DNA from: Thermodesulfovibrionales bacterium
GTDB taxonomy: Bacteria; Nitrospirota; Thermodesulfovibrionia; Thermodesulfovibrionales; SM23-35
DNA length: 64,000 nt
Reading direction: 5' to 3'
Assembly: GCA_963716185.1 (NCBI GenBank)
Contig: OY970295.1
Span: 780,078 to 844,077, forward strand
Shown here: piece after piece, positions 13,824 through 57,038 of the stretch
Position numbering within the stretch: position 1 is the first letter of the stretch
How the letters are laid out: each line of letters begins with the position of its first letter
The notes under the pieces: generated by a model
Database searches by the model: none
What the model was told of the DNA's origin: nothing
What the model saw: the letters and a program-made list of their open reading frames with translations, nothing else
Translations under genes and position numbers: made by a program

Positions 13824-13934
13824 GTCATTCCCGCAATCCCGAAAGCTTTCGGGAGTCGGGAATCCTTCCGAAACAACCCCCTGGCCCCCTTTTGTAAGGG
13901 GGAACAAGAAAGATTCCGGACAAGCCGGAATGAC
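13824..13934. repeat. composite GTCATTCC-type repeat, family 3, with a nested 18-bp palindrome
   Basis: GTCATTCCCGCAA [TCCCGAAAGCTTTCGGGA, 13837-13854] GTCGGGAATCC ... CCCCCTTTTGTAAGGGGG ... GATTCCGGACAAGCCGGAATGAC. The terminal arms are inverted. Confidence 0.8.
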
Positions 13935-13985
13935 AGCCTATACGCATATGTTATGAGCATTTAGTATTTCGAGCTTGGAATTTTT

Positions 13986-16448
13986 TCACTCTATCCTTGC
14001 TTTGATCCTTTCTCTTATTATATATGCCTGGCCGAGGGATATTCCAGCATCATTTGTCGGGACTTTATCATGTATATGGACCTTCAGACCTTTTGACTGA
14101 AGTATGTCCGTGCTCCTTCTCAGCAGATACATATTTTGAAAAACGCCGCCGCACAAGACAACATCTTTTATAGAGTACAGGGACGAAAGTTTCTCTACGA
14201 CCCTGACAGTGGCGGTAACAATGGTATTATGGAATTTTGATGAAATAACACTTTTGTCTTCACCTTTTACCAGGTCTTTTATAATTGCTAAAACGGTGTG
14301 AGAAAATCCGACCTCCATGGTATCTCTGAATTTTATATCGATGGGATAATCTTCGGAGATTCCGGTTGCCGCTGCGGCTTCAAGCGCTATTGCAGCCTCT
14401 CCCTCGAATGTATTCTTATCGCATATGCCGACCATTGCGGATATTCCGTCAAACAGCCTACCCGCGCCTGATGACAACGGCGAAAACTGCTTGTTATCAA
14501 CGATCTTTAATATATCTTTAATCCTGTTATGACCGTGCTTTTCAAAAAAGCCGATAGATTTGAGGTAAGTTATCGCCTCATCTCCGGCTGCATCCCGGAT
14601 ATAACTTACAGCTATCCTCCACGGCTCCCTCACAGCGACCTCTCCACCCGGAAGTGGAATGTATTTAAAATGGCATGCCCTTTTAAACCCTTTTATATCG
14701 GCGATCAAGAATTCCGCGCCCCAGAGATTGCCGTCGACGCCGTAGCCGGTGCCGTCAAAGGAAACCCCTATAACCTTCTCCTTAATGCCCTTCTCAGCCA
14801 TAACAGAGGCAACATGGGCATAGTGGTGCTGAATGCCGATCTTTTTTATGCCGTCCTGCCTCAAAGCCCATTGCGTAGATAAATACATCGGATGAAGATC
14901 ATAAGCAAGGACCTGGGGATTTACCCTGTATACATCTTTGAGGTTCTTCAAACTCTCCTCGAAAAACAGCAGCGTCTCATAGTTTTCCATGTCGCCTATG
15001 TGCTGGCTTGGAATGGCGAAACTCCCTTTTGTGAGAGTAAATACGTTCTTGAGATCAGCACCGCAACCGAGAACCTCGGGACCGTCATCGTGAAGTGGAA
15101 CAGGATCAGGCACATACCCCCTTGAGCGGCGGATGAAGGACAATGATGAGCGACCTTTAGTAACACCCCTTTGTCCCCCGGCGGAAGGCGTACTCCCCTC
15201 ATTATGTAAGGGGGGGCCAGGGGTGGTCATAACTTCGAAATTATTCACCCTCACAACCGAATCGTCTACACGCATAAAGATGTCCCTGTTATGGACAAGA
15301 AATGCGTCGGCAATACCCGAAAGTTTAGAAACAGCTTCTTCGTTGTCGACAACTATCGGCTCTTCGGAAATATTGCCGCTTGTCATCACAAGGGCGTCGA
15401 AATTCGCCCCCACTATCCCCTCCTTGTCAATGGGAGGTGTAAAAGGGGTAGGATAATAAAACAGCAAATAGTGCAAAGGGGTATAAGGGAGCATGAAGCC
15501 GACATAATTATTTTTGGGTGAAATCTCTTCGGGCAGATTATTCTTTAATTTCTTTAACAATACTATTGGTCTTCTGTTGGAGATTAAAATCTTCTCTTCT
15601 TCCTCAGACACCTCACAGAATTTTCTTATCGTTTTAACATCGGGGGCCATAAGGGCAAAAGGTTTATTGCTCCTCCTCTTTTTTAATCTCAGCCTTTTCA
15701 CAGCCTCATCATTTAGAGCGCCGCATGCGATGTGGAAACCACCCAACCCCTTAACAGCTACGATCATTCCTTCTTTCAAAAGCCGGACAGTTTCCCTTAT
15801 CGGATTCTTACTATGCATACGCCTTTTACTAAGGGAGATGCGCCCCTCCTCAATCCCCCCCTTGCTGATGCGGGGACGGGGGGGTATTATCAACTCGACG
15901 TGCGGGCCGCATACCGGGCATGCGATCGGCTGTGCATGAAATCGCCTGTCTTCCGGATTATAGTATTCCTTTTTGCAGTCAGGGCACATATTAAACACAG
16001 ACATTGTGGTATTCGGTCTGTCATAGGGAACCGATCTTGTTATAGTATATCTGGGCCCGCAGTTTGTGCAGTTTATGAACGGGTAAAGGTAACGCCTGTC
16101 TTCTTTATTCAGCATTTCGCTGAGACAATCTTCACATATCGATACATCCGCCGATACCAGGGTAAAACTACCTTCGTCTTCACTTTCTCTTATCCCAAAA
16201 TCTCGATAGCCGTGATATGTCATAGGTATTACGTCAACACTCATGATCTGAGAAAGTGGAGGCGCTTCCTTGTTGAGCCTGTCAATGAAGGCAGAACTGT
16301 TTTCTCCCTCTATCTCGATAGTCACTCCTCTGGAGGAGTTAATGACAAACCCTTTGAGGTTTAATGATCTGGCAAGGTTGTATACAAAAGGTCTGAATCC
16401 GACCCCTTGCACTACGCCTTTAACCGATATCTTGAGCCGTTGGTTCAT
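13986..16448 (-). CDS. hypF: carbamoyltransferase HypF
   Basis: Acylphosphatase-like N-terminus (VKGVVQGVGFRPFVY), four CxxC zinc-finger motifs, a YrdC-like KGLGGFH, and a Kae1-like C-terminal half. Two extra segments; see findings. Confidence 0.95.
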   Translation of the reverse strand: MNQRLKISVKGVVQGVGFRPFVYNLARSLNLKGFVINSSRGVTIEIEGENSSAFIDRLNKEAPPLSQIMSVDVIPMTYHGYRDFGIRESEDEGSFTLVSADVSICEDCLSEMLNKEDRRYLYPFINCTNCGPRYTITRSVPYDRPNTTMSVFNMCPDCKKEYYNPEDRRFHAQPIACPVCGPHVELIIPPRPRISKGGIEEGRISLSKRRMHSKNPIRETVRLLKEGMIVAVKGLGGFHIACGALNDEAVKRLRLKKRRSNKPFALMAPDVKTIRKFCEVSEEEEKILISNRRPIVLLKKLKNNLPEEISPKNNYVGFMLPYTPLHYLLFYYPTPFTPPIDKEGIVGANFDALVMTSGNISEEPIVVDNEEAVSKLSGIADAFLVHNRDIFMRVDDSVVRVNNFEVMTTPGPPLHNEGSTPSAGGQRGVTKGRSSLSFIRRSRGYVPDPVPLHDDGPEVLGCGADLKNVFTLTKGSFAIPSQHIGDMENYETLLFFEESLKNLKDVYRVNPQVLAYDLHPMYLSTQWALRQDGIKKIGIQHHYAHVASVMAEKGIKEKVIGVSFDGTGYGVDGNLWGAEFLIADIKGFKRACHFKYIPLPGGEVAVREPWRIAVSYIRDAAGDEAITYLKSIGFFEKHGHNRIKDILKIVDNKQFSPLSSGAGRLFDGISAMVGICDKNTFEGEAAIALEAAAATGISEDYPIDIKFRDTMEVGFSHTVLAIIKDLVKGEDKSVISSKFHNTIVTATVRVVEKLSSLYSIKDVVLCGGVFQNMYLLRRSTDILQSKGLKVHIHDKVPTNDAGISLGQAYIIRERIKARIE

Positions 16449-16509
16449 CGGCAGGCTTTTGAATACTCTGCATTTGTTAACCGTCTCAGAATAAAAGCAA
16501 CATTAATTA

Positions 16510-16590
16510 TAAAATCCCTCCCAACCTCCCTTTGCCAAAGGGAGGAATAACTCCCATCTTTGGCAAAGAGGGGTGAGGGGAGATTTTCAG
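16510..16590. repeat. double-hairpin intergenic repeat, family 1, copy C
   Basis: CCTCCCTTTGCCAAAGGGAGG and CCCATCTTTGGCAAAGAGGGG hairpins with AAAATCCC / GGGAGATTTT ends. Confidence 0.8.
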
Positions 16591-16723
16591 AATAATATAG
16601 CTCCAATTTTGAGATCCTCATAACGGGTAATTATATAAAAGATCGAGGACCCGAAGGGTCGGGGGTAAGAGAGTTGATAGTTTAAGAGTTTTTATTGAAT
16701 TCTCGAATCCTTGAATCCCTTTT

Positions 16724-17368
16724 TTACTTCACCAGAGACTGAAGCCAGTTTGTCCATTCACTTATTCCTTCACCCGTCTTGCACGAAACCTCGAATATCT
16801 TCAATTGCGGGTTTAGGGACAAGGAATCCTTCTTCATCTTTCCGATATCCGCATTTGTATAAGGCAGGAGATCGATCTTATTAAGAACCAGAGCCGACGA
16901 TTCCTGAAACATCAACGGATATTTCAGGGGTTTGTCATGGCCTTCAGCTATACTGAGAAGCATGACCTTCATGTCCTCGCCGACCTTAAATTCAGCAGGA
17001 CAGACGAGATTTCCCACGTTTTCTATTATAAGCAGGTCAAGATCGTTAAGCGGCAGTTCATACATCACTTCTCTGATCATGTTTGCATCCAGATGGCATG
17101 CGCCTCCGGTATTTATCTGAACAACAGGGATACCGAGTTTTTCGATCCTCTGTGCGTCATCGGTACCCGCAATATCTCCCTCTATCACGCCCATCTTTAT
17201 TTTGCCGTTGATACCCTGAATGGTCTTCTCTATTAGAGATGTCTTACCCGCTCCCGGGCCGCTCATAATATTCATCACATAAACACCGGCCTCATCAAAC
17301 ATCTTCTTATTTTCAGCGGCAAGCCTGTCATTAGCCTCCAAAATATTCGTCACGACCTTGACCTTCAT
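16724..17368 (-). CDS. hypB: hydrogenase nickel incorporation GTPase HypB
   Basis: P-loop GPGAGKTS, ENVGNLVCPA, NKIDL. ATG 17368 is preferred (GGAGG 7 nt upstream) and overlaps the hypA stop (TGATG). Confidence 0.95.
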   Translation of the reverse strand: MKVKVVTNILEANDRLAAENKKMFDEAGVYVMNIMSGPGAGKTSLIEKTIQGINGKIKMGVIEGDIAGTDDAQRIEKLGIPVVQINTGGACHLDANMIREVMYELPLNDLDLLIIENVGNLVCPAEFKVGEDMKVMLLSIAEGHDKPLKYPLMFQESSALVLNKIDLLPYTNADIGKMKKDSLSLNPQLKIFEVSCKTGEGISEWTNWLQSLVK

Positions 17369-17712
17369 CAAAATACCTCCATCTCATCGATATTTAATTC
17401 CCGTCCCGTCTCGATACGAAATGATTTGTTTCCGCACAGAGGACATGACAAAACATAAGCCTCTTCCACAGTAAAATTCTTGCTGCAGCTGTTACAAAAA
17501 CCGCTTACAGGGATTTCGTTTATTGTCAGGACAGCCTTCTCAGCGATGGTCCCTGTTTTAAGCGCCTCAAAGGCAAAAAGCAGGGAATCTGACATGACCC
17601 CGGAAGCCTTGCCTATCTTTACCTTTATTAATTCAATACCTGAAAAACCTTGTTTCTTACAACTATCTATTGCAATCTCGAGTAAACCCTGGGCTATGGA
17701 AACTTCATGCAT
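17368..17712 (-). CDS. hypA: hydrogenase maturation nickel metallochaperone HypA
   Basis: N-terminal MHEVSIA and paired CxxC motifs (CNSC...CPLC). The longer ORF to 17823 overlaps the upstream gene and is Arg-rich, so I reject that extension. Confidence 0.9.
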   Translation of the reverse strand: MHEVSIAQGLLEIAIDSCKKQGFSGIELIKVKIGKASGVMSDSLLFAFEALKTGTIAEKAVLTINEIPVSGFCNSCSKNFTVEEAYVLSCPLCGNKSFRIETGRELNIDEMEVF

Positions 17713-18028
17713 TCTGTTCTTTAGACAACCTCTCTTTCTCTTTTTCGTACGCTTCCTTGCCGGCCTCGATGGCAGTCGATATGATCGACTTCTTTTCCTC
17801 GTAGAATCCCTTGCCCTTGTCAATGCCGCCGGTTATTTTTTCTTTCACATCTTCCACATAACCCTTCGCCTTCTCTTTCACGTCCTCTGTAAGCTCTTTT
17901 ATCTTCTGTCTGGTTTCACGACCTGACTGGGGCGCCAGAAGCAAAGCAAAGCCCGCGCCTACCATGCCGCCGAGTAAAAACGAAAGGAATATACTTCCTG
18001 CGCTATATCCGCATTCTTCTTCTCTCAT
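17705..18028 (-). CDS. YtxH-like protein
   Basis: FLLGGMVGAGFALLLAPQSGRETRQKIKE followed by a Lys/Glu-rich helix, typical of the YtxH family. Confidence 0.75.
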   Translation of the reverse strand: MREEECGYSAGSIFLSFLLGGMVGAGFALLLAPQSGRETRQKIKELTEDVKEKAKGYVEDVKEKITGGIDKGKGFYEEKKSIISTAIEAGKEAYEKEKERLSKEQNA

Positions 18029-18420
18029 TGTCCGCCTCCCTTTCTTGAAAATAAGTTATTCAATAAAACCAAAAGGCCTGTCTTTATCCCGGCCTTTACA
18101 CCTGAAGCCTTTATGTAACCCGAGGATGTAAAATCTTCAACTACGCCGCTCACGCGCTTAATATTCAGCCCCACATCCCTCACTGATCCCGACAGGGTTT
18201 TAATGTCGGATGTAATATCACCGAGGTCATTAGAGACATTTCTCAAACTTTTTAGCGTCTGTTGCAGCTCTTCAAGAGTCGGTTTAAGCGACTCCTCTCT
18301 TGTCTTTAAAAAATCATTTAGGGAGTGGAATGTTCTCTTCATCTCGATAACCAGCGAGACGATAAATCCTGCCGTTATAAGGACGGCAATACCTATCAAT
18401 GTCTGCCATAATTGACTCAT
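18025..18420 (-). CDS. membrane-anchored coiled-coil protein (DUF948-like)
   Basis: A single N-terminal TM helix followed by heptad-like Leu-rich sequence. 4-nt overlap with the ytxH-like gene. Confidence 0.5.
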   Translation of the reverse strand: MSQLWQTLIGIAVLITAGFIVSLVIEMKRTFHSLNDFLKTREESLKPTLEELQQTLKSLRNVSNDLGDITSDIKTLSGSVRDVGLNIKRVSGVVEDFTSSGYIKASGVKAGIKTGLLVLLNNLFSRKGGGQ

Positions 18421-18520
18421 AATGACCTTTAAAATTATTATAACAGATTAAATAGGGAGTTAGAAGCAAAATAACAGCCGTACCGAAATGCAAATGTCTT
18501 TTGTGGTATTTTAATTATCC

Positions 18521-19591
18521 GTGGACGATACGTTTTATATAAAACGTGCGCTCAGGCTTGCGGCAAGGGCACGGGGAATGACAAGCCCGAACCCGATGGT
18601 GGGGGCTGTCATTGTTAAGAACGGACATATCATATCGGAAGATTTTCACAGAAGCCCCGGAACCCCACATGCCGAAGCCCTGGCCATTGAAAAGGCCGGT
18701 GAACAAGCCCGGGGGGCTGAATTATATGTAAATCTCGAACCATGCTGTCATACGGAAAAAAGAACACCCCCATGCACCAAATCTGTCATAAATGCAGGCA
18801 TAAAAAAAGTAATTGTTTCCATGAAAGACCCGAACCCGAGGGTTTCGGGCAAAGGAGTTACGGAGCTTCAAAAGGCGGGGATAGACGTGGTGTCAGGCGT
18901 TCTCGAGGATGAGGCAAAAAGACTTAATGAAACCTACATAAAACATATAACTACAGGGAAACCTTTTGTGACGCTCAAGATAGCCATGACCCTCGATGGC
19001 AAGATCGCAACTCCGGAGGGCCAGTCAAAATGGATTACGGGTGAAAGGGCGAGGAGGCTGGTCCACCGCTTAAGAAGCGGCGTTGACGCAATAATGACCG
19101 CCATAGGAACAGTGAAGGCCGATAATCCGCAGCTCACGGCCCGGACAAAGGGAGGGAAAAATCCGATAAGGATTATTATCGATCCGAATCTCGAGATACC
19201 TCTCGATGCTAGAGTGCTGCGAACCCCACCGGAGACAATTATTGTTACAAAGCTCAACAACTCTAAAGCAAATTATCTTCAAAAATCAGGTTTTAAATTA
19301 ATATTTTTTAAAGATATACTAGATCTTAAGCTTTTGATGAAAAATATCGGAGGAATGGACATTACGTCAGTTCTGATAGAAGGAGGCTCTTCACTAAATG
19401 CCCACGCCCTCGAAGACGGGATTGTTGATAAGATAATGTTCTTTATCGCGCCAATGATCATCGGGGGGAAAGAGTCCTTTCCCGCAGTAGGAGGAAAAAC
19501 CTTTAGAAAGCTCGAAGTGGCCTATAAAATAAAGGATACAAGAGTAAGACGGATTGGAGAGGACTTCCTGATCGAAGGGTATCTCAGATAG
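18521..19591 (+). CDS. ribD: bifunctional riboflavin biosynthesis deaminase/reductase RibD
   Basis: TSPNPMVGAVIV...PHAEALAI...LEPCCHTEKRTPPC deaminase motifs plus a C-terminal reductase domain. GTG start. Confidence 0.9.
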   Translation: MDDTFYIKRALRLAARARGMTSPNPMVGAVIVKNGHIISEDFHRSPGTPHAEALAIEKAGEQARGAELYVNLEPCCHTEKRTPPCTKSVINAGIKKVIVSMKDPNPRVSGKGVTELQKAGIDVVSGVLEDEAKRLNETYIKHITTGKPFVTLKIAMTLDGKIATPEGQSKWITGERARRLVHRLRSGVDAIMTAIGTVKADNPQLTARTKGGKNPIRIIIDPNLEIPLDARVLRTPPETIIVTKLNNSKANYLQKSGFKLIFFKDILDLKLLMKNIGGMDITSVLIEGGSSLNAHALEDGIVDKIMFFIAPMIIGGKESFPAVGGKTFRKLEVAYKIKDTRVRRIGEDFLIEGYLR

Positions 19592-19646
19592 ACCTGTCTG
19601 TCGAGAAAGATTATTCTAAACTTGAAATTCAACTATAATTCTCTAC

Positions 19647-24035: not shown

Positions 24036-24065
24036 AATAATGTAACCCCTTATCAGTCACACGTA

Positions 24066-24155
24066 GCATATCATAACCCCACCTTACCTCCCCTTAACTT
24101 AATCCCGAAAGCTTTCGGGACTCTTAAGTTAAGAGGGGGTGAGAGGAAGTTACCC
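24066..24155. repeat. family 2 hairpin repeat with the 18-bp palindrome at its apex
   Basis: ACCTCCCCTTAACTTAA [TCCCGAAAGCTTTCGGGA, 24103-24120] CTCTTAAGTTAAGAGGGGGT. Confidence 0.8.
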
Positions 24156-24194
24156 GATTCCACCCTCACTGAATGACCATGAAACAATATTCGA

Positions 24195-29210: not shown

Positions 29211-29278
29211 CAGAGTTGCTTAAATTGTAATTTATACACAGACTTTAAATGGAGCATGTCCATAAACGCGATAGTTGA

Positions 29279-29313
29279 CCACCCTCCCCTTACCCCTCCC
29301 ATCAAGGGAGGGC
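29279..29313. repeat. family 4 GC-rich repeat unit
   Basis: CCACCCTCCCCTTACCCCTCCCATCAAGGGAGGGC. Its reverse complement resembles 43071-43105. Confidence 0.6.
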
Positions 29314-29322
29314 ATATCTGCG

Positions 29323-29345
29323 GGAGCATGTTTGCAACATGCTCC
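29323..29345 (+). terminator. possible terminator hairpin after the phosphohexomutase gene
   Basis: Perfect 9-bp stem GGAGCATGT / TTGCA / ACATGCTCC followed by TTAACTTTTAT, a weak T-tract. Confidence 0.35.
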
Positions 29346-29455
29346 TTAACTTTTATATTGCGAACCCGGCTATTTCGTGCAGATGCATCCTTAGCTTTTC
29401 ATTGCTGGAGATAGGGTTCAGGTTATGGAAACCTGAACCCGCAAGGAGGAAGGCA

Positions 29456-29486
29456 AAGAAAGATTCCGGACAAGCCGGAATGACAG
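29456..29486. repeat. family 3 repeat fragment
   Basis: The 31 nt AAGAAAGATTCCGGACAAGCCGGAATGACAG are identical to 13906-13936. Confidence 0.85.
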
Positions 29487-29529
29487 AAAATGGAAACTGA
29501 TTGAGTTTATGAAACATACACTAAACAGG

Positions 29530-29868
29530 CTATTTGTTTTCGATGGAAAACAAGGGTTCGTGGATCGATTCGTTCCGGCAGACTGGGCACCTGCCCGGTT
29601 TGTTCAGTCTCTCCCTCTTTCTAAAAACGAAACCGCATTTTTTGCATATTGCAGGTTTGACTATAAATGTGTGACTGCCTTTATTGATAGTCCGCTGGAT
29701 ATGCTCAAGATGGTCGTATGCCTCTTTCTCGGAAATACCGGCTTCAACAGATATGTCTTTCGCAGACAGTCCCGAACGCTTTCGGGATTCGAGCAAGGCC
29801 ATTATCTTCTGCCGGATGGTCTCCCGCCTCTCAACCGGCACGAACGGCTTGAGAGGTTTTTTCTTCAT
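29530..29868 (-). CDS. predicted transcriptional regulator, HTH fused to a Zn-ribbon
   Basis: HTH-like LSAKDISVEAGISEKEAYDHLEHI and C-terminal CKKC...CPVC. 4-nt overlap with the obg stop. Confidence 0.7.
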   Translation of the reverse strand: MKKKPLKPFVPVERRETIRQKIMALLESRKRSGLSAKDISVEAGISEKEAYDHLEHIQRTINKGSHTFIVKPAICKKCGFVFRKRERLNKPGRCPVCRNESIHEPLFSIENK

Positions 29869-30964: not shown

Positions 30965-31057
30965 CAAACTCCCCTCCTATTTTAGGAGGGGATTAAGGGG
31001 TGGTAAGCCGTAATCGGACAACCACCCCGACCCCTCCTTACCAAGGAGGGGAGTTTG
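30965..31057. repeat. triple-hairpin element with perfect 14-bp terminal inverted repeats
   Basis: CAAACTCCCCTCCT ... AGGAGGGGAGTTTG. Internal hairpins CCCCTCCTATTTTAGGAGGGG, GGGGTGGT..ACCACCCC and CCCCTCCTTACCAAGGAGGGG. Confidence 0.8.
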
Positions 31058-31157: not shown

Positions 31158-31231
31158 GTCATTCCGGCTCGTCCGGAATCTTTCCGGGCTTCTCAGAAGG
31201 ATTCCCGACGCGCTTCGCTTGCGGGAATGAC
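31158..31231. repeat. GTCATTCC-type repeat, family 3
   Basis: GTCATTCCGGCTCGTCCGGAATC ... GATTCCCGACGCGCTTCGCTTGCGGGAATGAC. Confidence 0.75.
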
Positions 31232-31604: not shown

Positions 31605-31606
31605 AT

Positions 31607-35044: not shown

Positions 35045-35062
35045 TCCCGAAAGCTTTCGGGA
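35045..35062. repeat. 18-bp perfect palindrome TCCCGAAAGCTTTCGGGA
   Basis: Exact copy lying between rplI and dnaB. Confidence 0.9.
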
Positions 35063-35094
35063 CTTCGCAGTTTCCGCAAGTTTAGGTAATCATT

Positions 35095-35754: not shown

Positions 35755-35872
35755 GTAATCCTTCAGGGAAGTGTGGCATAGCATAACCCCTCCTTACCTC
35801 CCCTTACCTTAAGGGGAGGAATAAACCTCCTCTTAGGTTAAGAGGGGGAAGGGGAAGTTAATGAAGGATTAC
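35755..35872. repeat. family 2 double-hairpin repeat with terminal inverted repeats
   Basis: GTAATCCTTCA...TGAAGGATTAC ends. Internal hairpins CCTCCCCTTACCTTAAGGGGAGG and CCTCCTCTTAGGTTAAGAGGGGG. Confidence 0.8.
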
Positions 35873-40205: not shown

Positions 40206-40283
40206 GAAAAATCTCCCCTCCCCTTTGCCAAAGAGTCCCGAAAGCTTTCGGGATTTGGCAAAGGGAGTTTAGGAGGGATTTTA
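40206..40283. repeat. family 1-related hairpin with the 18-bp palindrome at its apex
   Basis: CCCCTTTGCCAAAGAG [TCCCGAAAGCTTTCGGGA, 40236-40253] TTTGGCAAAGGGAG, with AAAAATCTCC / GGAGGGATTTT ends. Confidence 0.85.
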
Positions 40284-40319
40284 TAATAAATGTCTTCATT
40301 CCTATGACTTTATTAGACG

Positions 40320-43070: not shown

Positions 43071-43162
43071 GCCCCTTGATGGGGGAGGGTTAGGGAGAGG
43101 GTGTTTGATGAAAATAATTTATAACACCCTCCCCTTCATCCGCTCCCCTCAAGAGAGGGGAG
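43071..43162. repeat. family 4 GC-rich repeat, two inverted copies
   Basis: GCCCCTTGATGGGGGAGGGTTAGGGAGAGGGTG ... CACCCTCCCCTTCATCCGCTCCCCTCAAGAGAGGGG. The arms are approximate reverse complements. Confidence 0.65.
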
Positions 43163-47816: not shown

Positions 47817-47817
47817 G

Positions 47818-48972
47818 CTAAAACATCCTCGGCCCCGAAGGCTGTTGTGACTTTACCTTTGCCAGAGATTCTACTATCAGTTCCTCTCCTTCGTTTATCT
47901 TTCCCGATATAAGCTCGGTGTAACTGCCGTCGCTTATACCTATCGAGACCGGGACCCGTTTTGGTTTCCCCTGCTCGAGTATCCAGACACCGGTCCCTTT
48001 CTGTTGCGCCGCGGCCTTGTTCTTCTCAGCGGGTTTGAATCTCAGGGCAGCATTCGGTATCTTAAGAACACCCTTTTTTATTGAGATGATTATGGACACG
48101 TTGGCGGTCATCCCGGGTTTAAGTTTGAAATCCGGGTTGGCAACCTGGATCACTACATCGTAGGTCACAACGTTCTGGACTATTATCGGGGCGTTCCTGA
48201 CCTGCAATACCTTGCCCTTGAAGGTGATGTCCGGATAAGCATCCACAGTAAATTCAACGTCCTGCCCGACTTTCACACTTCCTATGTCCGCCTCGGCCAC
48301 ATTCGTGTCTATCTGCATTTTTGTGAGGTCCTGTGCAATGCTGAAGAGTGTCGGCGTCTGAAAGCTTGCGGCAACTGTCTGACCGACGTCCACATTTCTC
48401 GAAACAACAATCCCGTCTACGGGAGAGATTATCTTCGTATAATAAAGGTTTGTCTCGGCAGAGCTTAAGGCCGCCTCGCTCTGGGCCACCTGGGACTTTG
48501 CAGCGCTTACAGAAGCCTTTGCCGTTTCATAGTTTGTTTCCGCCGTGTCGAGGTCACTCTGCGCGACAAGATTTTTTGATAACAACTCCTTATTCCGGTC
48601 CATGGTCCTCTTCGCATCAACGAGAGTTGCTGCAGCTTTCTCCAAATTTGCCTTGGCTGAAAAGAGGTTCGCCCTCGACTGGTTCACCTGTGCCTCAAAC
48701 AGGGCCGGGTCTATCCGCGCTATCAGCTGGCCTTTCTTTACAGGTGAATTGAAATCAACATAAATATTCTTTATCGTGCCTGATACCTGTGTTCCTACAA
48801 GTACGGTGGTCACAGGGTTTACTGTGCCCGTGGCGGTTACCGCCATTTCCACATCGCCTCTTACGACCTTGTCAAATCTGAATTTCGGCTCTTTCCCGTT
48901 GCCCCTGAACAGCAGAAATCCACCAACAGCAATAACAATAATTATTCCGCTGATGATAAGTATTTTTTTCAT
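47818..48972 (-). CDS. efflux periplasmic adaptor subunit (MacA-like)
   Basis: Signal anchor, lipoyl motif, long alpha-hairpin and beta-barrel domains. Adjacent to the MacB-type ABC genes. Confidence 0.85.
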   Translation of the reverse strand: MKKILIISGIIIVIAVGGFLLFRGNGKEPKFRFDKVVRGDVEMAVTATGTVNPVTTVLVGTQVSGTIKNIYVDFNSPVKKGQLIARIDPALFEAQVNQSRANLFSAKANLEKAAATLVDAKRTMDRNKELLSKNLVAQSDLDTAETNYETAKASVSAAKSQVAQSEAALSSAETNLYYTKIISPVDGIVVSRNVDVGQTVAASFQTPTLFSIAQDLTKMQIDTNVAEADIGSVKVGQDVEFTVDAYPDITFKGKVLQVRNAPIIVQNVVTYDVVIQVANPDFKLKPGMTANVSIIISIKKGVLKIPNAALRFKPAEKNKAAAQQKGTGVWILEQGKPKRVPVSIGISDGSYTELISGKINEGEELIVESLAKVKSQQPSGPRMF

Positions 48973-50285: not shown

Positions 50286-50329
50286 CCCGACCTCCTTACG
50301 CCGTCTTATGGTTTAATCCTTATTTGTCC

Positions 50330-53300
50330 TTAATGCCTTCCAAGCAAATTGTTCACTTTCTCCTGGAACTTGTCCATGTAACAGAACACCACAGGGGTTA
50401 TATACAGCGTCAGGAGCTGGGAAACGATGAGACCGCCGACAACGGCGAGACCAAGCGGACGGCGGGACTCGGCGCCGGAGCCGAAGCCGATAGCAATCGG
50501 CATGGTCCCCATAAGCGCCGCCATAGTGGTCATCATGATCGGGCGGAAACGTATCAAAGCGCCCTCATAGATCGCATCTACCGCCGCTTTCCCTTCTTTC
50601 CTCTGTGCCGCCAGGGCAAAATCGATCATCATGATGGCGTTCTTCTTGACTATCCCCAGGAGCATGATGACGCCGACAAAAGCATAAATATTCAGGTCCA
50701 TATGAAAAAGCATGAGGCTGATGAGAGCTCCGAAACCGGCTGCGGGAAGTCCTGAAAGGATGGTGAGAGGATGGATAAAGCTCTCGTAAAGTATTCCCAG
50801 CACAATGTAGATGACCAGAAGAGCCATAATCAGGAGCAGCCAGAGCCCCTTCATTGACGACTGAAATGCCTGGGCAGTTCCCTGGAAGCTGGTGCTGACA
50901 GTCTGAGGCAATGCAGCATGTGCAAGTTTATCAACAATCGAAACAGCGTCACCGAGTGCCACACCCGGCTTGAGGTTAAAGGATATGGTGACTGCCGGAA
51001 GCTGGCCCAGATGGTTCACGGTAAGAGGACCGGTGTTCTGCGTCAGAGCCGCCACAGTGTTCAACGGCACCAGTTGGCCGGTGTTTGAGTGTATATAGAG
51101 CATGGACAGGGCCGAGGGGTCCATCTGGTACTTGGGTTCCAGCTCAAGAATGACCTGATACTGGTTATTGGGCGCATATATGGTCGAAACCTGCCGGGAA
51201 CCGTATGCATAATAGAGGGCGTCCTCAATCTGTCCTGCCGTAACGCCAAGGGCAGACGCCTTGTCGCGGTCTATATCGACATTAACCTGGGGGTCTTTTA
51301 TCTGCAGGTCGCTCGTGACGTCCTGCAGCTGCGGCAGCGCCCGCATCTTGCCTTCCAGTTCTGAAGCTGAGCGATAAAGTTCTCCCGTGTCCGGACTTTG
51401 GAGTGTAAACTGGTACTGGCTCTTGGTCAGCTGACCGCCGATCCGGATAGAGGGAAGGTTCTGCATGAACATCTGGATGCCCGGCACCTGCGCGACCTTT
51501 GGCCGCAGTTCCTGGATAATCTCGTCCGCACTCAGCTTCCGTTCATTGCGGGGCTTCAGCCGCATGAACATGCGGCCGACATTATTCGACACACTGACTC
51601 CGCTGGCGCCGACTGCGGACATGAAGACATCGATATTTGGGTCCTTGGTGACTATGGCGGCCAGCTCCTTCTGGTGCCTTACCATGTCTTCAAAGGAAAT
51701 ACCCTGGGTCGCCTCGGTAAAGGCAAATATCTGGCCTGTATCTTCTGAAGGCAGGAATCCCATCGGAATTTTTGTGAACAAAAAGCCTGTCGCCACCGTG
51801 AAGATAATAATGACTGCGAGGGTAGTGCCGCGGTAGTTGAGGACAATCTTCAGGGTCCTTTCATAGGTGTGGAGCATACCATCGAAGAAACGTTCCATCA
51901 ATATATACATGCGGCCGTGCCGCTCTGCAGCCTGCGGCCGGATGAAACGGCTACAGAGCATCGGGGTGAGCGTCAGGGAGACAAATCCGGATATCAGTAT
52001 CGCCATGCTTATGGTCACCGCAAATTCGTGGAGAATCCTCCCGAGAATCCCGCCCATGAAGAGAACCGGTATGAAAACCGCAACAAGGGAAAGGGTCATG
52101 GACAAAATAGTAAAGCCGATTTCCTTGGAACCGGTGAGTGCGGCCTGGCGGACCCCTTCCCCTTTTTCTATATGGCGTACGATATTTTCGAGCATAACGA
52201 TAGCATCATCCACCACAAACCCCACAGAAAGGGTCAGGGCCATAAGGGAGATATTGTCCACGCTGAATCCCATCAGATACATTGCTGCAAAGGTGCCGAT
52301 GATGGAGAAAGGCAGCGCAAGACTTGGGATAATCGTGGCGGAGAGATTGCGAAGAAACAGAAAAATGACCAGCACTACAAGACATAATGAGAGCAAGAGA
52401 GTAAACTTCACGTCCCCGACGGAGTCGCGTATGGATACGGAGCGGTCGTAAAGGGTCTCCAGCTTGACCGAAGGGGGTATCTGGAGCCTGAAGGTCGGCA
52501 GGAGCTTCTTGATGCTGTCCACCACCTCGATTGTGTTCGTTCCCGGCTGGCGCTGGATCGCCAGGACGACGGCGCGTTCGTTATTGTACCAGTTCGCCAC
52601 CTTGTTGTTTTCCACGCTGTCGATGACCCTGCCTATTTCGTCAAGCCGGACCGGCGAGCCGTTGTGGTAAGCCACAATCAAGGGGCGATAGGCCGCCGCA
52701 TTATAAAGCTGTCCGGTTGCCTGGATAGTAAACGCCTGTTTTTGGCCTTCGAGGGTGCCTGTAGGAAGGTTCACATTTTGCAGCGCGAGCGCGTTTCCCA
52801 CATCATCAATGCCGACTTTTTTATTTGCAAGGGCACTCGGGTCGAGCTGGGCGCGGACGGCAAACTTCTGAGAGCCGAAGACCTGCACCTGGGCAACACC
52901 GCTGATCATCGAAATGCGCTGGGCTATGAAGGTATCCGCATATTCATAGACTGTGGAGACGGGAAGTATCGGTGAGCTGAGCGCAAGGTAGATAACGGGC
53001 TGGTCCGCAGGATTTACCTTGCTGTAGGTGGGAGGGGTCGGCATATTCTGCGGTAGTTGCTTCGCAGCTTTGGCAATCATCGCCTGCACGTCCTGACCGG
53101 CAGCGTCTATGTTTCTGCTCAGATTGAACTGCAGCGTAATCATAGAATTGCCGAGGGCGTTGGTAGAGGTCATCGAGTCCAGACCGGCGATAGTCGAAAA
53201 CTGCCGCTCCAAAGGTGTCGCTACGGCCGATGCCATGGTTTCCGGGCTGGCACCCGGCAGGCTGGCCGTCACCTGGATAGTAGGAAAGTCCACATTCGGC

Positions 53301-53410
53301 AGATCGCTCACAGGCAGAAGCCTGTACGCGGCAAAACCGAAGACCAGGATGGACACCATGACCAGAGTGGTCATGATCGGCCTGCGGATAAAAAGCTCAG
53401 GGACGTTCAT
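50330..53410 (-). CDS. RND multidrug efflux permease (AcrB/MdtBC family)
   Basis: 1026 aa. N-terminal FIRRPIMTTL and a 12-TM RND architecture with two large periplasmic loops. Confidence 0.95.
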   Translation of the reverse strand: MNVPELFIRRPIMTTLVMVSILVFGFAAYRLLPVSDLPNVDFPTIQVTASLPGASPETMASAVATPLERQFSTIAGLDSMTSTNALGNSMITLQFNLSRNIDAAGQDVQAMIAKAAKQLPQNMPTPPTYSKVNPADQPVIYLALSSPILPVSTVYEYADTFIAQRISMISGVAQVQVFGSQKFAVRAQLDPSALANKKVGIDDVGNALALQNVNLPTGTLEGQKQAFTIQATGQLYNAAAYRPLIVAYHNGSPVRLDEIGRVIDSVENNKVANWYNNERAVVLAIQRQPGTNTIEVVDSIKKLLPTFRLQIPPSVKLETLYDRSVSIRDSVGDVKFTLLLSLCLVVLVIFLFLRNLSATIIPSLALPFSIIGTFAAMYLMGFSVDNISLMALTLSVGFVVDDAIVMLENIVRHIEKGEGVRQAALTGSKEIGFTILSMTLSLVAVFIPVLFMGGILGRILHEFAVTISMAILISGFVSLTLTPMLCSRFIRPQAAERHGRMYILMERFFDGMLHTYERTLKIVLNYRGTTLAVIIIFTVATGFLFTKIPMGFLPSEDTGQIFAFTEATQGISFEDMVRHQKELAAIVTKDPNIDVFMSAVGASGVSVSNNVGRMFMRLKPRNERKLSADEIIQELRPKVAQVPGIQMFMQNLPSIRIGGQLTKSQYQFTLQSPDTGELYRSASELEGKMRALPQLQDVTSDLQIKDPQVNVDIDRDKASALGVTAGQIEDALYYAYGSRQVSTIYAPNNQYQVILELEPKYQMDPSALSMLYIHSNTGQLVPLNTVAALTQNTGPLTVNHLGQLPAVTISFNLKPGVALGDAVSIVDKLAHAALPQTVSTSFQGTAQAFQSSMKGLWLLLIMALLVIYIVLGILYESFIHPLTILSGLPAAGFGALISLMLFHMDLNIYAFVGVIMLLGIVKKNAIMMIDFALAAQRKEGKAAVDAIYEGALIRFRPIMMTTMAALMGTMPIAIGFGSGAESRRPLGLAVVGGLIVSQLLTLYITPVVFCYMDKFQEKVNNLLGRH

Positions 53411-53413
53411 AAT

Positions 53414-54553
53414 CTATTTGTTCCCGGCTTTGTTTTTGATTTCCACCGTGGCGCCGGGGACAAGCCTTAGCTGGCCGTCGGTAACTACTTTTTCACCGGG
53501 TTGAAGTCCTTTTTCGATAACAGTTTCACTGTTGAGTGTCCTGCCCGCAATTATGGGGCGCGAATCAACAGTGAGATCGGTCTTTATGACAAATACATAC
53601 TGCCCGTTCTGGCCTGCCTGGACCGCAGGTGTCGGGACTACAACTGCATTAGGCTGTGTGGTCAATATCATGACCACATCAACAAATTGACCCGGCCAAA
53701 GCCACTTTCTATTATTGGCAAATGTAGCTTTCAGTTTGATTGTCCCGGTAGCGACGTCAACTGTATTGTCCACAAAAGTCAGTATCCCTTCCTCAGGGTT
53801 GTCCTCGCCTTTTATTACAAAAGCCTGGACCTTCACTTTTCCGTCCGACATGTATTTCTTTATTTCCGAAAGAGACTGTTCCGGCACGGAAAAGGTTACA
53901 TAGATGGGCTGGATCTGATTGATGACTACCATGGAAGTATCGGCATTCGACTTTATAAGATTGCCCTCGTTGGATATGAGATTCCCGGTCCGTCCGTTAA
54001 TTGGAGAGTAGATATAACAATATTTCAACTGGAGGCGGGCATTTTCAACTACGGCCTTGTCGGCGTTTACCGTTGCCTCAAAGGCTGCGGCGTTAGTACG
54101 AATCTGGTCGTACTGTTCCTGCGCCACATAACCCCTTTTTACGAGTTCGGCATAGCGCCGGACTTCTTCACGTCCGTTTTCGAGCTGGGCATTGTCCTTT
54201 GCAAGGTTTGCTTCCGCCTGCTTCAGAGCAGCTTCGTAAGGACGCGGATCAATAGTGAAAAGGATGCTCCCCTGACGTACATCCTGCCCCTCCCTGAAAT
54301 GTACACGGGTCAGTATGCCTCCTATCTGAGATTTGACCGATACCGTGGAGTAAGCTTCAACATTGCCGATGGCGCGGATCTGCACCGGGACGGTCTTTTG
54401 GACCACAATGCCCGCTGTCACCGGCGCAGGCGGCTTGGGAGGCGGCGCCTGCTTCTTGGAACAAGCAGGGACCATGACCGCCAATAAAATACCTAAGACT
54501 GCAAAAATGGCCCCCGTATTTTTTACAAATCCCGAACTTATCTTTCTATCCAT
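53414..54553 (-). CDS. RND efflux periplasmic adaptor subunit
   Basis: Lipobox-like VPAC, with lipoyl, alpha-hairpin and beta-barrel segments. 3-nt gap to the RND gene. Confidence 0.9.
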   Translation of the reverse strand: MDRKISSGFVKNTGAIFAVLGILLAVMVPACSKKQAPPPKPPAPVTAGIVVQKTVPVQIRAIGNVEAYSTVSVKSQIGGILTRVHFREGQDVRQGSILFTIDPRPYEAALKQAEANLAKDNAQLENGREEVRRYAELVKRGYVAQEQYDQIRTNAAAFEATVNADKAVVENARLQLKYCYIYSPINGRTGNLISNEGNLIKSNADTSMVVINQIQPIYVTFSVPEQSLSEIKKYMSDGKVKVQAFVIKGEDNPEEGILTFVDNTVDVATGTIKLKATFANNRKWLWPGQFVDVVMILTTQPNAVVVPTPAVQAGQNGQYVFVIKTDLTVDSRPIIAGRTLNSETVIEKGLQPGEKVVTDGQLRLVPGATVEIKNKAGNK

Positions 54554-54636
54554 GAGTTTCTCCTGATTATAAGTTTCATCGTATCAGATCAAAGAAAAAT
54601 CTTCTCTCCCGGGGGAAAACCTTCTTTCTGTCTCTG

Positions 54637-55221
54637 TCACACCTTCTTATGCGCAATTAAAAGACCTTCAAAAATAAATTCGTCCATCGTCTCAGGCTTG
54701 ACTACGACACCTTCGTCCAACGCCATCGATACAATAACACCACGCACCGAGCCAAGTATGACTTTGGCCATATCAGCGGCATTACATTTTCTGAATTCAC
54801 CGGCGCGAATCCCTTTGACAAGTATTTTCTCGATCAGTTCTCTCTGGCTTCGGAAAAATTGCCTTTTTTCATTCATACCGAAAGCAAAGCCGTGCTCTCT
54901 GAGGTGGAGAAGGATAAAATCTCTATGCTTCATCGCATACTCAAGATGAAGTCTCAGAAAGTTGGATAAGGCCTGAGTTGCGGATTGGGCCTGTTGAACG
55001 GACATCTCTATCCTCGCGCTTATCTCATGCCTCCCTTCAATGATCAGACTTTTAAAGAGTTCCTGTTTATTCTTGAAATAAAGATAAATACCGCCCACGC
55101 TTATGCCCGCTTTCCCCGCGATCTCCCTGATATTGGCCTTTGCGTACCCGCGCCTGGAGAAAACATCCATGGCGGCATTAATTATCTTCTTTCTGGACTC
55201 TATACCTGAACGCCTGTTCAT
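54637..55221 (-). CDS. TetR/AcrR family transcriptional regulator
   Basis: N-terminal HTH (AAMDVFSRRGYAKANIREIAGKAGISVGGIYLYFKNK) at the head of the efflux array. Confidence 0.9.
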   Translation of the reverse strand: MNRRSGIESRKKIINAAMDVFSRRGYAKANIREIAGKAGISVGGIYLYFKNKQELFKSLIIEGRHEISARIEMSVQQAQSATQALSNFLRLHLEYAMKHRDFILLHLREHGFAFGMNEKRQFFRSQRELIEKILVKGIRAGEFRKCNAADMAKVILGSVRGVIVSMALDEGVVVKPETMDEFIFEGLLIAHKKV

Positions 55222-55282
55222 GTGAACCTGTGTTCAGTATAAGATGACCGGCGTTCACATGTCAAGAAATTTCAGAATTTTT

Positions 55283-55397
55283 GTAATCCTTCAGTGAAGT
55301 GTGGGATCATGTAACTCCCCCCTCCCCCTCTTAACCTAAGAGGGGGTTTTGTTCCTCCCCTTAAGATAAGGGGAGGTAAGGTGGGGTTATGAAGTAC
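55283..55397. repeat. family 2 double-hairpin repeat
   Basis: Begins GTAATCCTTCAGTGAAGTGTGG, as at 35755. Hairpins CCCCCTCTTAACCTAAGAGGGGG and CCTCCCCTTAAGATAAGGGGAGG. Confidence 0.8.
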
Positions 55398-55446
55398 AAC
55401 GTTCCACTGAAAAATTGCGAACTTCTCAGACGTTGCGGCGAAGGGA

Positions 55447-55797
55447 TTATTTGACTTTGATAATTCTATTCTTTTCGTCGAGGACGACTATAGTGGGCTT
55501 GAATACTTTCAGCTTGGTGTCTTCAATATAGTTATAACAGAAGATGATAATTTTATCACCGACAATGCCTTTCCTCGCGGTAGGGCCGTTCAGACAGATT
55601 TCTCCCCGTTTGCCCGGTATGACATACGTCTCGAACCGTTCACCGTTATTGAGATTACTTATCATCACCTGCTCATAGGGAATTATACCCGCCTTTTTAA
55701 GGACGGCTTCATCAATAGTAATGCTGCCCTCGTAGGAAAGGTTGGACTCCGTGACCGTCGCCATATGTATCTTCGCCCTTAATATGCACCTGAACAT
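55447..55797 (-). CDS. panD: aspartate 1-decarboxylase
   Basis: MFRCILRAKIHMATVTESNLSYEGSITID, including the G-S self-cleavage site. ATG 55797 has a GGGGGA SD upstream. Confidence 0.93.
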   Translation of the reverse strand: MFRCILRAKIHMATVTESNLSYEGSITIDEAVLKKAGIIPYEQVMISNLNNGERFETYVIPGKRGEICLNGPTARKGIVGDKIIIFCYNYIEDTKLKVFKPTIVVLDEKNRIIKVK

Positions 55798-55922
55798 AAA
55801 ATATCCCCCGGATTTCCAAGAATGAAATTGCAATTATTGCAAACAACTTTATTATGCATAGAGGCGCCGGCTAAATTCAATAGTGTCCGCCTTCCGGCTC
55901 TGAAATTGACATCATCCCTTCT

Positions 55923-56825
55923 TCACTTGCAGCAGACAGCGCCGTTTTTACACATGCCCGCATATTCAAACTGAACAGCGGAATGAGTAATCCCATACCT
56001 CTGCTCCAAAAGCACGTTTATTTTCTGAACAAGTTCATTTATCTCGTTGGAATGTTTTTCTTCGGATACGCAGGCATGGCAGGACAAAAATATATTTTCC
56101 GAGTTTACCGACCAGATATGCAAGTCATGAACATTCTCAACCCCTTTTATTGATGCGATAGCGCCAAGAACCTCATCGAAATCAATCTCTTTGGGAACTC
56201 CCTGCATAAAAATGTGGAGAGCATCCCTCAGAACACCCAGCCCGCTCCATATCATCATGATTGCTATCAACAGGCTGGCAACAAGGTCGAACGTCACCCA
56301 CCGGGTTACGGCTATTGCAATCGAAGCTATGATAACAAAGACAGAGGAAAGGGCGTCGTAGAAGAGGTGTAGATACAGCGATCTCATGTTCAGGTTCTTG
56401 TCCTTATTGCGCTTCAAGACCAGGACCGAAAGTATATTGCCGGCCAACCCAACCATCGCAACGGAAAGCATTATACTCAATGAAATTTGTCTTCCGATGG
56501 AAAATCTTTTGACAGCTTCCCCGATAATAATCAGTCCTATACCGCACAGGGAAACCGCATTAATAAAGGCGACAGCAACTTCCGTACGCTTTAATCCGAA
56601 TGAATGCTTCTTTGTTGCCTTCTTATGGGAAAATGTTTCTCCGAAATAACTCAATATCAGCGACAGGACATCTGAAAAATTGTGTCCGGCATCGGATACG
56701 AGGGCGAGGCTGCCGGAGAGTATCCCGCCGATATATTCGGCGGCAGTGATGGCCAGATTGAACAAAACAACCCACCCGATATTATTTGCATTATGCCTAT
56801 GTGCGTGCGCGTGCATAAGTTTCAA
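55923..56825 (-). CDS. cation diffusion facilitator family transporter
   Basis: His-rich N-terminus, 6 TM segments with the motifs SDAGHNFSD and HLFYD, and a C-terminal cytoplasmic domain. Confidence 0.9.
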   Translation of the reverse strand: MKLMHAHAHRHNANNIGWVVLFNLAITAAEYIGGILSGSLALVSDAGHNFSDVLSLILSYFGETFSHKKATKKHSFGLKRTEVAVAFINAVSLCGIGLIIIGEAVKRFSIGRQISLSIMLSVAMVGLAGNILSVLVLKRNKDKNLNMRSLYLHLFYDALSSVFVIIASIAIAVTRWVTFDLVASLLIAIMMIWSGLGVLRDALHIFMQGVPKEIDFDEVLGAIASIKGVENVHDLHIWSVNSENIFLSCHACVSEEKHSNEINELVQKINVLLEQRYGITHSAVQFEYAGMCKNGAVCCK

Positions 56826-57020
56826 TTATTATAGTAACAAATCAAAAGACTTTATTCACTCTCCGGACAGTTAACCCAAAAACTGGAATTCACCAAATAT
56901 CCGGGGAGGCATAGTGGCAGAAAAAGCTTGACAGCAGCACCTTTGTGGGCGGTCGGATATCAAGGCCGCCTGGATATTTTTATTCGGAAGAAATATATGG
57001 AGTAGAAAACCCAAATTCTG

Positions 57021-57038
57021 TCCCGAAGGCTTTCGGGA
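57021..57038. repeat. variant of the 18-bp palindrome (TCCCGAAGGCTTTCGGGA)
   Basis: One mismatch relative to the consensus; intergenic. Confidence 0.7.

Follow-up and report, generated by a model that had tools for sequence, protein, structure and literature searches.

The window analysed here, a 64-kb stretch of a Nitrospirota chromosome whose positions are numbered from its first letter, carries six exact or near-exact copies of an 18-base perfect palindrome, TCCCGAAAGCTTTCGGGA, hereafter called PAL. It is an ordinary chromosomal stretch, whose homologues bear names that include "Nitrospirota bacterium" and "Thermodesulfovibrionales". Its genes encode multihaem cytochromes, hypA/B/D/E/F, gltB, trx, a MATE transporter, cysS, pgm, obg, the ribosomal proteins L21, L27 and L9, dnaB, mlaDEF, efflux pumps, a CDF transporter, gatC, pcrA, glmS and glmU. 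Neither a tRNA nor an Rfam match was found in the window, and a literature search for the PAL sequence itself found no description. Our analysis shows that PAL is an independent unit, common to three unrelated families of host hairpins and not part of one family consensus.

Six copies of a perfect palindrome

A mismatch-tolerant search of the window places exact copies of PAL at 13837–13854, 24103–24120, 35045–35062 and 40236–40253, and one-mismatch copies at 29770–29787 (AACGCTTT) and 57021–57038 (AAGGCTTT), confirming all the coordinates given in a preliminary description of this DNA. The six matches found at up to two mismatches compare with 0.01 expected from 100 dinucleotide-preserving shuffles of the 64-kb window, which rules out a chance origin, as the preliminary description had held; the most-repeated 14-mers of the window are PAL-derived words. 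PAL folds into a 7-bp stem with a 4-nucleotide (nt) loop, and both one-mismatch variants are altered solely in the central four bases that make up this loop.

Three of the six copies cap longer hairpins of three repeat families, two are free-standing in spacers and one lies in-frame in a gene, so that the earlier claim of a position always at the apex of a host hairpin holds for only half of them. The exact copy at 13837–13854, listed without strand, is the apex of an NTS-like family 3 hairpin in the apparent hypF–hypD operon. Two further exact copies, each followed by CT, form the centre of a family 2 hairpin in the gltB–trx spacer, on which the two genes converge (24103–24122, plus strand), and of a family 1 hairpin in the mlaF–mlaD spacer, again within an apparent operon (40234–40253, minus strand). 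The free-standing copies are an exact PAL with CT in the spacer between the L9 gene (rplI) and dnaB (35045–35064, plus strand), and the variant between the CDF transporter gene and gatC, whose loop is changed to GGCT (57021–57038, also listed without strand). These five are intergenic; the sixth, at 29768–29787 on the minus strand, reads TCCCGAAAGCGTTCGGGA plus CT on the gene strand and occupies codons 28–33 of a PF0610-like gene. PAL and CT occur together in one orientation in four copies (24103+, 35045+, 40236− and 29770−), with a probability of roughly 0.002 by chance according to our estimate, and this suggests that a 20-nt unit, asymmetric in sequence, was copied within the genome. The same orientation bias is not present across phyla.

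An assembly artefact is ruled out by contigs of the same strain from other sequencing runs: in two independent assemblies (L215 and L216; loci outside the window are numbered with this prefix) the 35045 copy is internal, at 100% identity. Three further independent same-strain assemblies (L217, L218 and L219) end in or next to the 57021 copy (window 57017–57035), and PAL also lies at contig ends in matches from the genome collection (L072:7851–7868, L081:53, L038:88 and L116:93). Because contigs break at PAL, copy counts based on metagenome-assembled genomes (MAGs) are underestimates. Protein look-ups with L9 and GatC led only to same-strain contigs at 100% identity, which are uninformative for polymorphism, and exact-protein look-ups of the window DnaB and of a 156-residue trx ORF (open reading frame) gave no match.

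The perfect two-fold symmetry over 18 bp, the HindIII-type core and the intergenic position of five of the six copies would suit a site for a dimeric protein, whether an operator, an AAGCTT-centred restriction-modification or methylation target, or a DNA-uptake signal. We find this scarcely credible. AAGCTT occurs 25 times in the window against 21 ± 4 expected, neither avoided nor enriched, and this chance-level count gives no support to a HindIII-type restriction-modification motif, an idea raised in the preliminary description. The half-sites TCCCGAAAG and CTTTCGGGA are found in the window solely within PAL and never singly, unlike those of uptake sequences, which counts against that candidate. 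Furthermore, no shared role links the genes beside the copies (hyp, gltB/trx, rplI/dnaB, mla and CDF/gatC), and the copies lie between convergent genes, in operons and in other repeats, not at promoters.

Host hairpins and their exchangeable apices

DNA folding with PAL as the tip gives −13.4 kcal/mol (z = −4.6) at 13820–13870, −20.4 kcal/mol (z = −5.7) at 24066–24156 and −24.3 kcal/mol (z = −6.2) at 40206–40286, bearing out the earlier observation that three exact copies cap hairpins of three different families. The family 3 host at 13824–13865 (plus strand), a dRS3/NTS-like hairpin of the type GTCATTCC..GGAATCC, consists of PAL between GTCATTCCCGCAA and GTCGGGAATCC. In the family 2 host in the gltB–trx spacer (24074–24152, plus strand) PAL is flanked by ..CCTCCCCTTAACTTAA and CTCTTAAGTTAAGAGGGGG.., and in the family 1 host (40208–40282, plus strand), which lies between mlaF, the ABC gene, and mlaD, by ..CCCCTTTGCCAAAGAG and TTTGGCAAAGGGAG...

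Each of these families also has PAL-free members in the window, which rules out PAL as part of a single family consensus. A family 3 member at 31199–31231 (minus strand) has GCGAAGCGC between the same arms, GTCATTCCCGCAA and GTCGGGAATCC; a family 2 member at 35773–35860 (plus strand) has GGGGAGGAATAAACCTCCT replacing PAL and the adjoining CT; and a family 1 member at 16500–16587 (plus strand) has the apex GGGAGGAATAACTCCC, with other members at 9290–9377 and 11902–11989. The PAL-free members of family 1 (9290, 11902 and 16500) and of family 2 (35773) have an apex of the form GGAGG-AATAA(A)C-C(C)TCC in PAL's place. Copies lacking the palindrome had been reported earlier for all three families, and they exist; the copy cited for family 3, at 31158, is a different variant, and the closer match is the one at 31199–31231. 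The preliminary description had also envisaged that PAL might merely belong to one family consensus, with no pairs of empty and filled sites. Instead, we found a paralogous pair in each family and an orthologous pair within a gene, PAL being present in the window and missing from the related locus L126.

The exchange of apices is seen most fully in family 3, whose base, GTCATTCCCGCAA[X]GTCGGGAATCCTTC (with GTCGGGAATCC as the right arm elsewhere), carries four alternative apical hairpins X across several genomes. X is GCGAAGCGC-like in five genomes (window 31199–31231 on the minus strand, L015, L149, L154 and L160), PAL in the window, TCCGCCGGAGGCGGAGC at L154:2672, and TCCCG followed by PAL and TTCGGGAG in L080. 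In the other two families the position of the unit can be read from what is left without it: family 2 minus PAL and CTC is the perfect palindrome CTTAACTTAA|TTAAGTTAAG, and family 1 minus GAG and PAL is the perfect palindrome CCCTTTGCCAAA|TTTGGCAAAGGG. Because a perfect palindrome remains once PAL and three bases are removed, the unit must sit at the exact symmetry centre of both hosts. PAL acts as an exchangeable apex cassette, and the conserved base carries alternative apical mini-hairpins in its stead. Of the two possibilities raised earlier, an insertion preference for hairpin apices or a modular apex cassette, the cassette fits best, given the four alternative apices; the events are replacements, not clean insertions.

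A hairpin of this kind could also work at the transcript level, as an intrinsic terminator, a stabiliser of mRNA or a site of RNase processing, and selection could have favoured it separately at each site. The stable 7-bp stem and 4-nt loop, the confinement of both mismatches to the loop, the TTTTT that follows the 57021 copy, the T-runs in which the outer stems of family 1 end, and the position of the hairpin just past a stop codon at loci of the Fibrobacteres–Chlorobi–Bacteroidetes (FCB) group (see below) would all fit such a role. We nevertheless hold it to be highly improbable. The terminator pattern is seen in only one of the six copies (57021), on the strand opposite both neighbouring genes, and another copy lies in coding sequence and is translated, which together speak against an intrinsic terminator. 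In addition, a scan of three regions found terminator-like sites no more than modestly above their frequency in shuffles, two copies are enclosed by apparent operons (hypF–hypD and mlaF–mlaD), exact palindromy through the loop would be useless in RNA, and there is no Rfam match.

PAL resembles the elements of the REP/BIME and REPIN–RAYT systems (PMC3116915, PMC3733652) in being a small extragenic palindrome with a high copy number and a lineage-specific burst, and, as in REP/BIME, its motif combinations are mosaic. REPs have also been reported within other, longer palindromes and in-frame within ORFs (PMC3733652). Unlike REPs and REPINs, PAL has no GTAG or CGTC tag, its flanks vary and the window copies share only the CT tail; its palindrome is perfect, theirs imperfect, and it is not found in inverted doublets. 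No RAYT gene, encoding an IS200/IS605-like Y1 transposase, was found among the window ORFs.

Filled and empty sites among relatives

The in-gene copy allows a comparison between a filled and an empty allele. The 29770 copy encodes the residues SRKRSG (codons 28–33) of a PF0610-like helix-turn-helix/Zn-ribbon gene at 29530–29868 on the minus strand, and PAL has no stop codon in any frame. In an AlphaFold (AF2) model with a pLDDT of 78.7, these residues fall at the end of helix 1 and in the loop after it. At this site the majority of homologues have three residues (xxT) and one sub-clade has six. In L126–L129, which are 94–95% identical to the window at the nucleotide level, the site reads CTCGAA-AAAAATACCA-TGTCTG as against CTCGAA-TCCCGAAAGCGTTCGGGAC-TGTCTG in the window. 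The flanks are identical, and 10 nt have been exchanged for 19 (PAL plus C), with no duplication. PAL replaces sequence rather than adding to it and leaves no target-site duplication, a comparison that rules out simple insertion with target duplication. A tree from which the indel was masked puts the empty allele inside the clade of filled ones, which implies either an old insertion followed by loss or replacement of the patch, or repeated insertion at the same site. PAL has been gained and lost among close relatives.

Rickettsia palindromic elements (RPEs) are also cited in PMC3733652 and were reportedly described by Ogata and colleagues in 2000. RPEs are roughly 100–150 bp long, against 18 bp for PAL. 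The in-gene PAL is like them in being in-frame, tolerated by the protein and, as the structural model predicts, at a surface loop; it is unlike them in that it replaces 9–10 nt, and only one in-gene copy was seen. A miniature inverted-repeat transposable element (MITE) is ruled out, given that PAL is 18 bp long, not an element of 70–300 bp with terminal inverted repeats, and has no target-site duplication.

The relatives compared (loci L121–L210, 762 kb, with DnaB 79–93% identical to that of the window) contain a single exact PAL, so the burst is specific to the window's lineage. Relatives with ~95% identity in the flanking genes have wholly different spacers between conserved genes (window 29211–29529 and 24036–24194 compared with L126:1448–1477, L130:1373–1500 and L220:1865–2091). 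The PF0610–pgm spacer, 319 bp of hairpin modules in the window, is 29 bp long in L126 and a different sequence of ~120 bp in L130. The trx–gltB spacer, which holds the 24103 site, is unrelated in L220, where the flanks are 94–97% identical, and comprises only 14 bp in the more distant L221. The orthologous mlaF–mlaD spacer in L121 is different again, with NTS-type repeats. The L9–dnaB spacer is not present in most relatives, and in the homologous spacer of L131 other sequence replaces the PAL segment. The turnover of intergenic hairpin modules is very high, each spacer being filled with a different set of small hairpins at ~95% flank identity.

The L131 spacer (L131:3760–3990) is bounded by an inverted repeat of ~21 bp, GGGAGCAGATATGCTGAAAAA ... 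TTTTTCAGCATATCTGCCCCC, with its arms ~190 bp apart in a MITE-like arrangement. The window retains only the right end of this type of inverted repeat in its own L9–dnaB spacer.

Since the intergenic differences observed are whole-spacer swaps, pure mosaic recombination remains the main rival to any copying of PAL by itself. PAL would then have no mobility of its own and would be an interchangeable block, as in the BIMEs of E. coli and the NIMEs of Neisseria, and whole composites or spacers would move through homologous or microhomology recombination, gene conversion and replication slippage between repeat copies. At intergenic sites, close relatives do differ by replacement of the whole spacer and not of PAL alone; the composite GTCATTCCCGCAA..PAL..GTCGGGAATCC is found in L080 too; other hairpin modules (GGAGCATGTT..AACATGCTCC, GGGTTCAGG..CCTGAACCC and the CCCCTCC units) behave alike; and no enzyme gene was found in the window or the Nitrospirota loci. 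We take this alternative seriously and judge it unlikely. PAL stands alone in two spacers and one gene, where the flanks have no repeat homology, and the 20-nt unit lies at the exact centre of two unrelated hosts, with no homology to guide recombination. Moreover, several phyla share the very same 18-mer, in numerous unrelated contexts.

NIMEs are blocks of 50–150 bp between copies of dRS3. The window spacers are like them in consisting of interchangeable repeat blocks and ATTCCC..GGGAAT hairpins that differ between close strains, whereas the variable block that is PAL lies inside a hairpin, at its tip.

Kindred repeats, small GIY-YIG genes and a possible copying route

The flanks and stem of family 3 are those of the dRS3/NTS repeats of Neisseria, for which the consensus is CGTCATTCCCGCGMAVGCGGGAATCYRG (PMC11893778), and a repeat in L121 matches this consensus at 27 of 28 positions. 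Ssn nucleases bind and cut NTS and the wider group of SRM motifs, and do so solely when the DNA is single-stranded (Chenal et al. 2025, PMC11893778). They are single-domain GIY-YIG (cd10448) enzymes of ~94 residues whose genes are typically flanked by the repeats (PMC11893778). The published degenerate SRM motif, HGTCWYN(0-2)YYVSBRHN(0-5)WNVSBRGN(0-2)RNCYNB, includes the oriented 5′ GTC tag. It has one match in the window, at 13516 inside hypD, which is at chance level (0.31 expected); the Nitrospirota PAL loci, 73 kb in all, yield 8, and a shuffle yields 0. One SRM-matching repeat, TGTCATTCCCCGAAAGCTTTCGGGGAATC, found on the minus strand at L015:6526 and L080:982, has a hairpin made up of the inner 16 nt of PAL and one extra C:G pair. 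Within 70 nt of PAL, the density of GTCATYCY tags is 5.7 times that in the remainder of the loci concerned, and in L041 and L045 PAL lies between two inverted NTS-like hairpins.

At the level of sequence, PAL shares its core with SRM repeats, and it may best be described as a tagless derivative of the SRM variant GTCAT-TCCCCGAAAGCTTTCGGGGA-ATC in which the hairpin was kept and the oriented GTCAT flank lost. PAL is like dRS3/NTS/SRM repeats in being short, hairpin-forming, multi-copy and mostly intergenic, in having the inner stem TCCCG/CGGGA, and in lying nested in or next to NTS-like hairpins. It is unlike them in being a perfect 18-bp palindrome without the oriented GTCAT tag, and in forming the apex of other repeats and lying inside a gene. 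Within the dRS3/NTS/SRM–REP class of hairpin repeats, PAL represents a new variant, minimal and unusually promiscuous.

Three near-PAL variants were noted: CCCCGAAAGCTTTCGGGG, 10 nt past PAL in an Armatimonadota MAG (L016:516–575); TCCCGAAGCCTTTCGGGA in a Thermodesulfovibrionales MAG (L028:1985–2003); and CCCCGAAAGCTTTCGGAA in the spacer between the gene for ribosomal protein L27 and obg of locus L121 (8871–8888). Their sequences suggest a wider family with compensatory stem changes.

Species-representative genomes (596 Gb) contain at least 120 PAL loci, where an arithmetic estimate predicts ~9 for a random 18-mer. Among the loci listed, 76 are in Bacteroidota, 13 in Nitrospirota, 13 in other FCB-group phyla, 4 in Armatimonadota, 4 in Cloacimonadota, 2 in Proteobacteria, 2 in Firmicutes and 6 in other or unclassified genomes; within this set, the taxonomic spread is strongly skewed and the contexts are diverse. 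PAL was found in 0 contigs of IMG/VR as against 2 for each of two control palindromes, figures that do not serve as a frequency control for cellular genomes.

Clustering of the small ORFs near PAL at these loci yielded one recurrent family, which encodes single-domain GIY-YIG proteins of 80–95 residues (Pfam PF01541). In 10 of the 12 small GIY-YIG ORFs from the listed FCB-group loci and the contexts of further homologues, PAL or a hairpin with the same stem follows 4–30 nt past the stop codon; PAL adjoins GIY-YIG genes in other phyla. These hairpins have the stem TCCCGAA/TTCGGGA and the loop AGCT, GA or AGTC, and are embedded in incomplete copies of the adjacent tRNA gene, taking the place of the anticodon arm in L094 and L031, of half of that arm in L106, and of the 5′ T-stem and T-loop in L222 and L227. 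In these tRNA-gene copies, what was overwritten by PAL appears once again to be a hairpin. Unlike at ssn loci, where the repeat is found on both sides, PAL lies only 3′ of the FCB GIY-YIG genes, within tRNA fragments.

In Bacteroidota, Cloacimonadota and Ignavibacteria, a tRNA gene is adjoined by one to six tandem units, each comprising a small single-domain GIY-YIG ORF, a partial tRNA with an arm made up of PAL or a PAL-like hairpin, or both (L094:4100–5400, L106:5030–6200, L101:4250–5130, L113:1960–2530, L031:140–560, L222:1250–1800 and L227:670–1160). The arrangement resembles a tRNA-associated GIY-YIG cassette of a kind not described before, and searching the literature for a GIY-YIG and tRNA cassette in Bacteroidetes found no description. 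A full-length tRNA-like gene with PAL as its anticodon arm lies at L009:1572–1656, within a seven-gene tRNA array of a Bacteroidota MAG. It scores 47 bits with the Rfam tRNA model and is labelled 'tRNA-???', with anticodon agct, by ARAGORN; a second PAL is present at L009:1882.

From these observations we infer a single-stranded DNA stage, the kind of enzyme involved and a mechanism of copying. PAL would be a self-contained hairpin module of the SRM/REP class that is copied into the tips of hairpins by a process acting on single-stranded DNA, with an enzyme supplied in trans; we put the chances of this account at about even. In the window genome, the copied unit would be the 20 nt of TCCCGAAAGCTTTCGGGA plus CT, and copying would take place at the DNA level, a short stretch being overwritten without target-site duplication. 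Most often the target would be another hairpin repeat, either its small apical hairpin or its exact centre of symmetry; now and then it would be an ordinary spacer, or the part of a gene that encodes a surface loop. An extruded single-stranded hairpin may be open to breakage and repair at its tip, and since only there does an added palindrome leave the pairing of the host intact, copies at the tip would survive. As the most likely driver we envisage a small GIY-YIG nuclease of the Ssn type that would act in trans on hairpins in single-stranded DNA, after which templated repair, or a template switch, would draw on another copy of PAL.

Several observations weigh against this account. At the intergenic sites compared, the orthologous state of a host hairpin without PAL was not found, so the composites could have arrived whole. 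Neither the window nor any Nitrospirota PAL locus examined contains a GIY-YIG, RAYT or transposase gene, so the enzyme proposed for the source genome is putative; the DNA-binding or nicking enzyme that the preliminary description had proposed to seek nearby was likewise not encountered, as the window ORFs include no transposase, RAYT, GIY-YIG or other nuclease able to account for PAL. The FCB GIY-YIG proteins look closer to UPF0213 than to Ssn, UPF0213 proteins being their nearest relatives in the PDB. Cleavage by SsnA needs an oriented 5′ GTCAT flank (PMC11893778), which PAL lacks, and the spread mechanism of NTS/SRM repeats is itself unknown (PMC11893778). In the window scan, neither PAL nor the family 3 copies matched the SRM motif, which rules out strict SRM membership for the latter. 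Among the matches listed across phyla, about ten are coding coincidences, such as the Mrp motif GPSVPKAFG, and flanks with at least 5 enclosing pairs around PAL are only modestly more frequent than in mismatched-flank controls (57% versus 41%).

A more specific version would make PAL the cognate single-strand hairpin of an undescribed clade of small GIY-YIG nucleases. These would belong to tRNA-targeting cassettes of Bacteroidota and related phyla, composed of a tRNA, a GIY-YIG gene and a partial tRNA with a PAL arm, and would propagate PAL by nuclease-triggered 'hairpin homing' that crossed phyla into Nitrospirota. PAL would then overwrite tRNA arms, the tips of NTS repeats, the centres of palindromes and coding loops alike. 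We regard this version as distinctly doubtful. If true, hairpin homing would explain how the entire dRS3/NTS/SRM class propagates, for which a mechanism has been missing.

The multiplication of the small hairpin repeats that fill bacterial spacers (REP, dRS3/NTS and SRM) is unexplained, and PAL makes the mechanism of copying testable. It is a very small, delimited unit with filled and empty alleles at ~95% identity, placement at symmetry centres, replacement of apices and a sequence link to the repeats of Ssn. It also indicates that hairpin modules of this kind can be written into protein-coding genes and copies of tRNA genes. A further parallel is offered by the small dispersed repeats (SDRs) of Nostoc and other cyanobacteria, which Elhai and colleagues reportedly described in 2008. 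They are reportedly 21–27 nt long, below the size of MITEs and seemingly mobile by a mechanism that is not known; they are said to lie within other repeats and in settings that form hairpins, and not to duplicate their targets. PAL differs from SDRs in phylum and sequence, and in being a perfect palindrome common to several phyla.

Further repeats accompany PAL in the window. A short NTS-like hairpin, GTCATTCCGGCTTGTCCGGAATC, lies at 13912–13934 (minus strand), with an identical copy at 29462–29484 (minus strand) and a variant at 31158–31180 (plus strand). The first two are contained in an exact 31-bp duplicate, AAGAAAGATTCCGGACAAGCCGGAATGACAG, at 13906–13936 and 29456–29486; 15.5 kb separates the copies, and each occupies a spacer of its own. 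Hairpin modules unrelated to PAL include GGAGCATGTTGCAAACATGCTCC, GGGTTCAGGTTTCCATAACCTGAACCC and several CCCCTCC..GGAGGGG units (window 29323–29345, 29414–29440, 29294–29312, 30965–31057, 43075–43153 and 55324–55376). The GGAGCATGTTGCAAACATGCTCC and GGGTTCAGGTTTCCATAACCTGAACCC types recur in the unrelated spacer of L220, and hairpins of the CCCCTCC type flank PAL in other phyla (L030, L047, L098 and L110). Within the multihaem cytochrome gene at 2261–3076, two tandem 36-bp units that are 75% identical (GATAAAGGTGCCGGACCCCGCGAGGCCGGGAAAAGA) span 2908–2979. Finally, the glmS–glmU spacer contains dense direct and inverted GTAGACAG repeats at 61508–61598 (CAGTAGATAGTAGACAGTAAAAAGTAGACAGC ... GCTGTCTACTAACTGCTGTCTACT), which may form a regulator-binding array.

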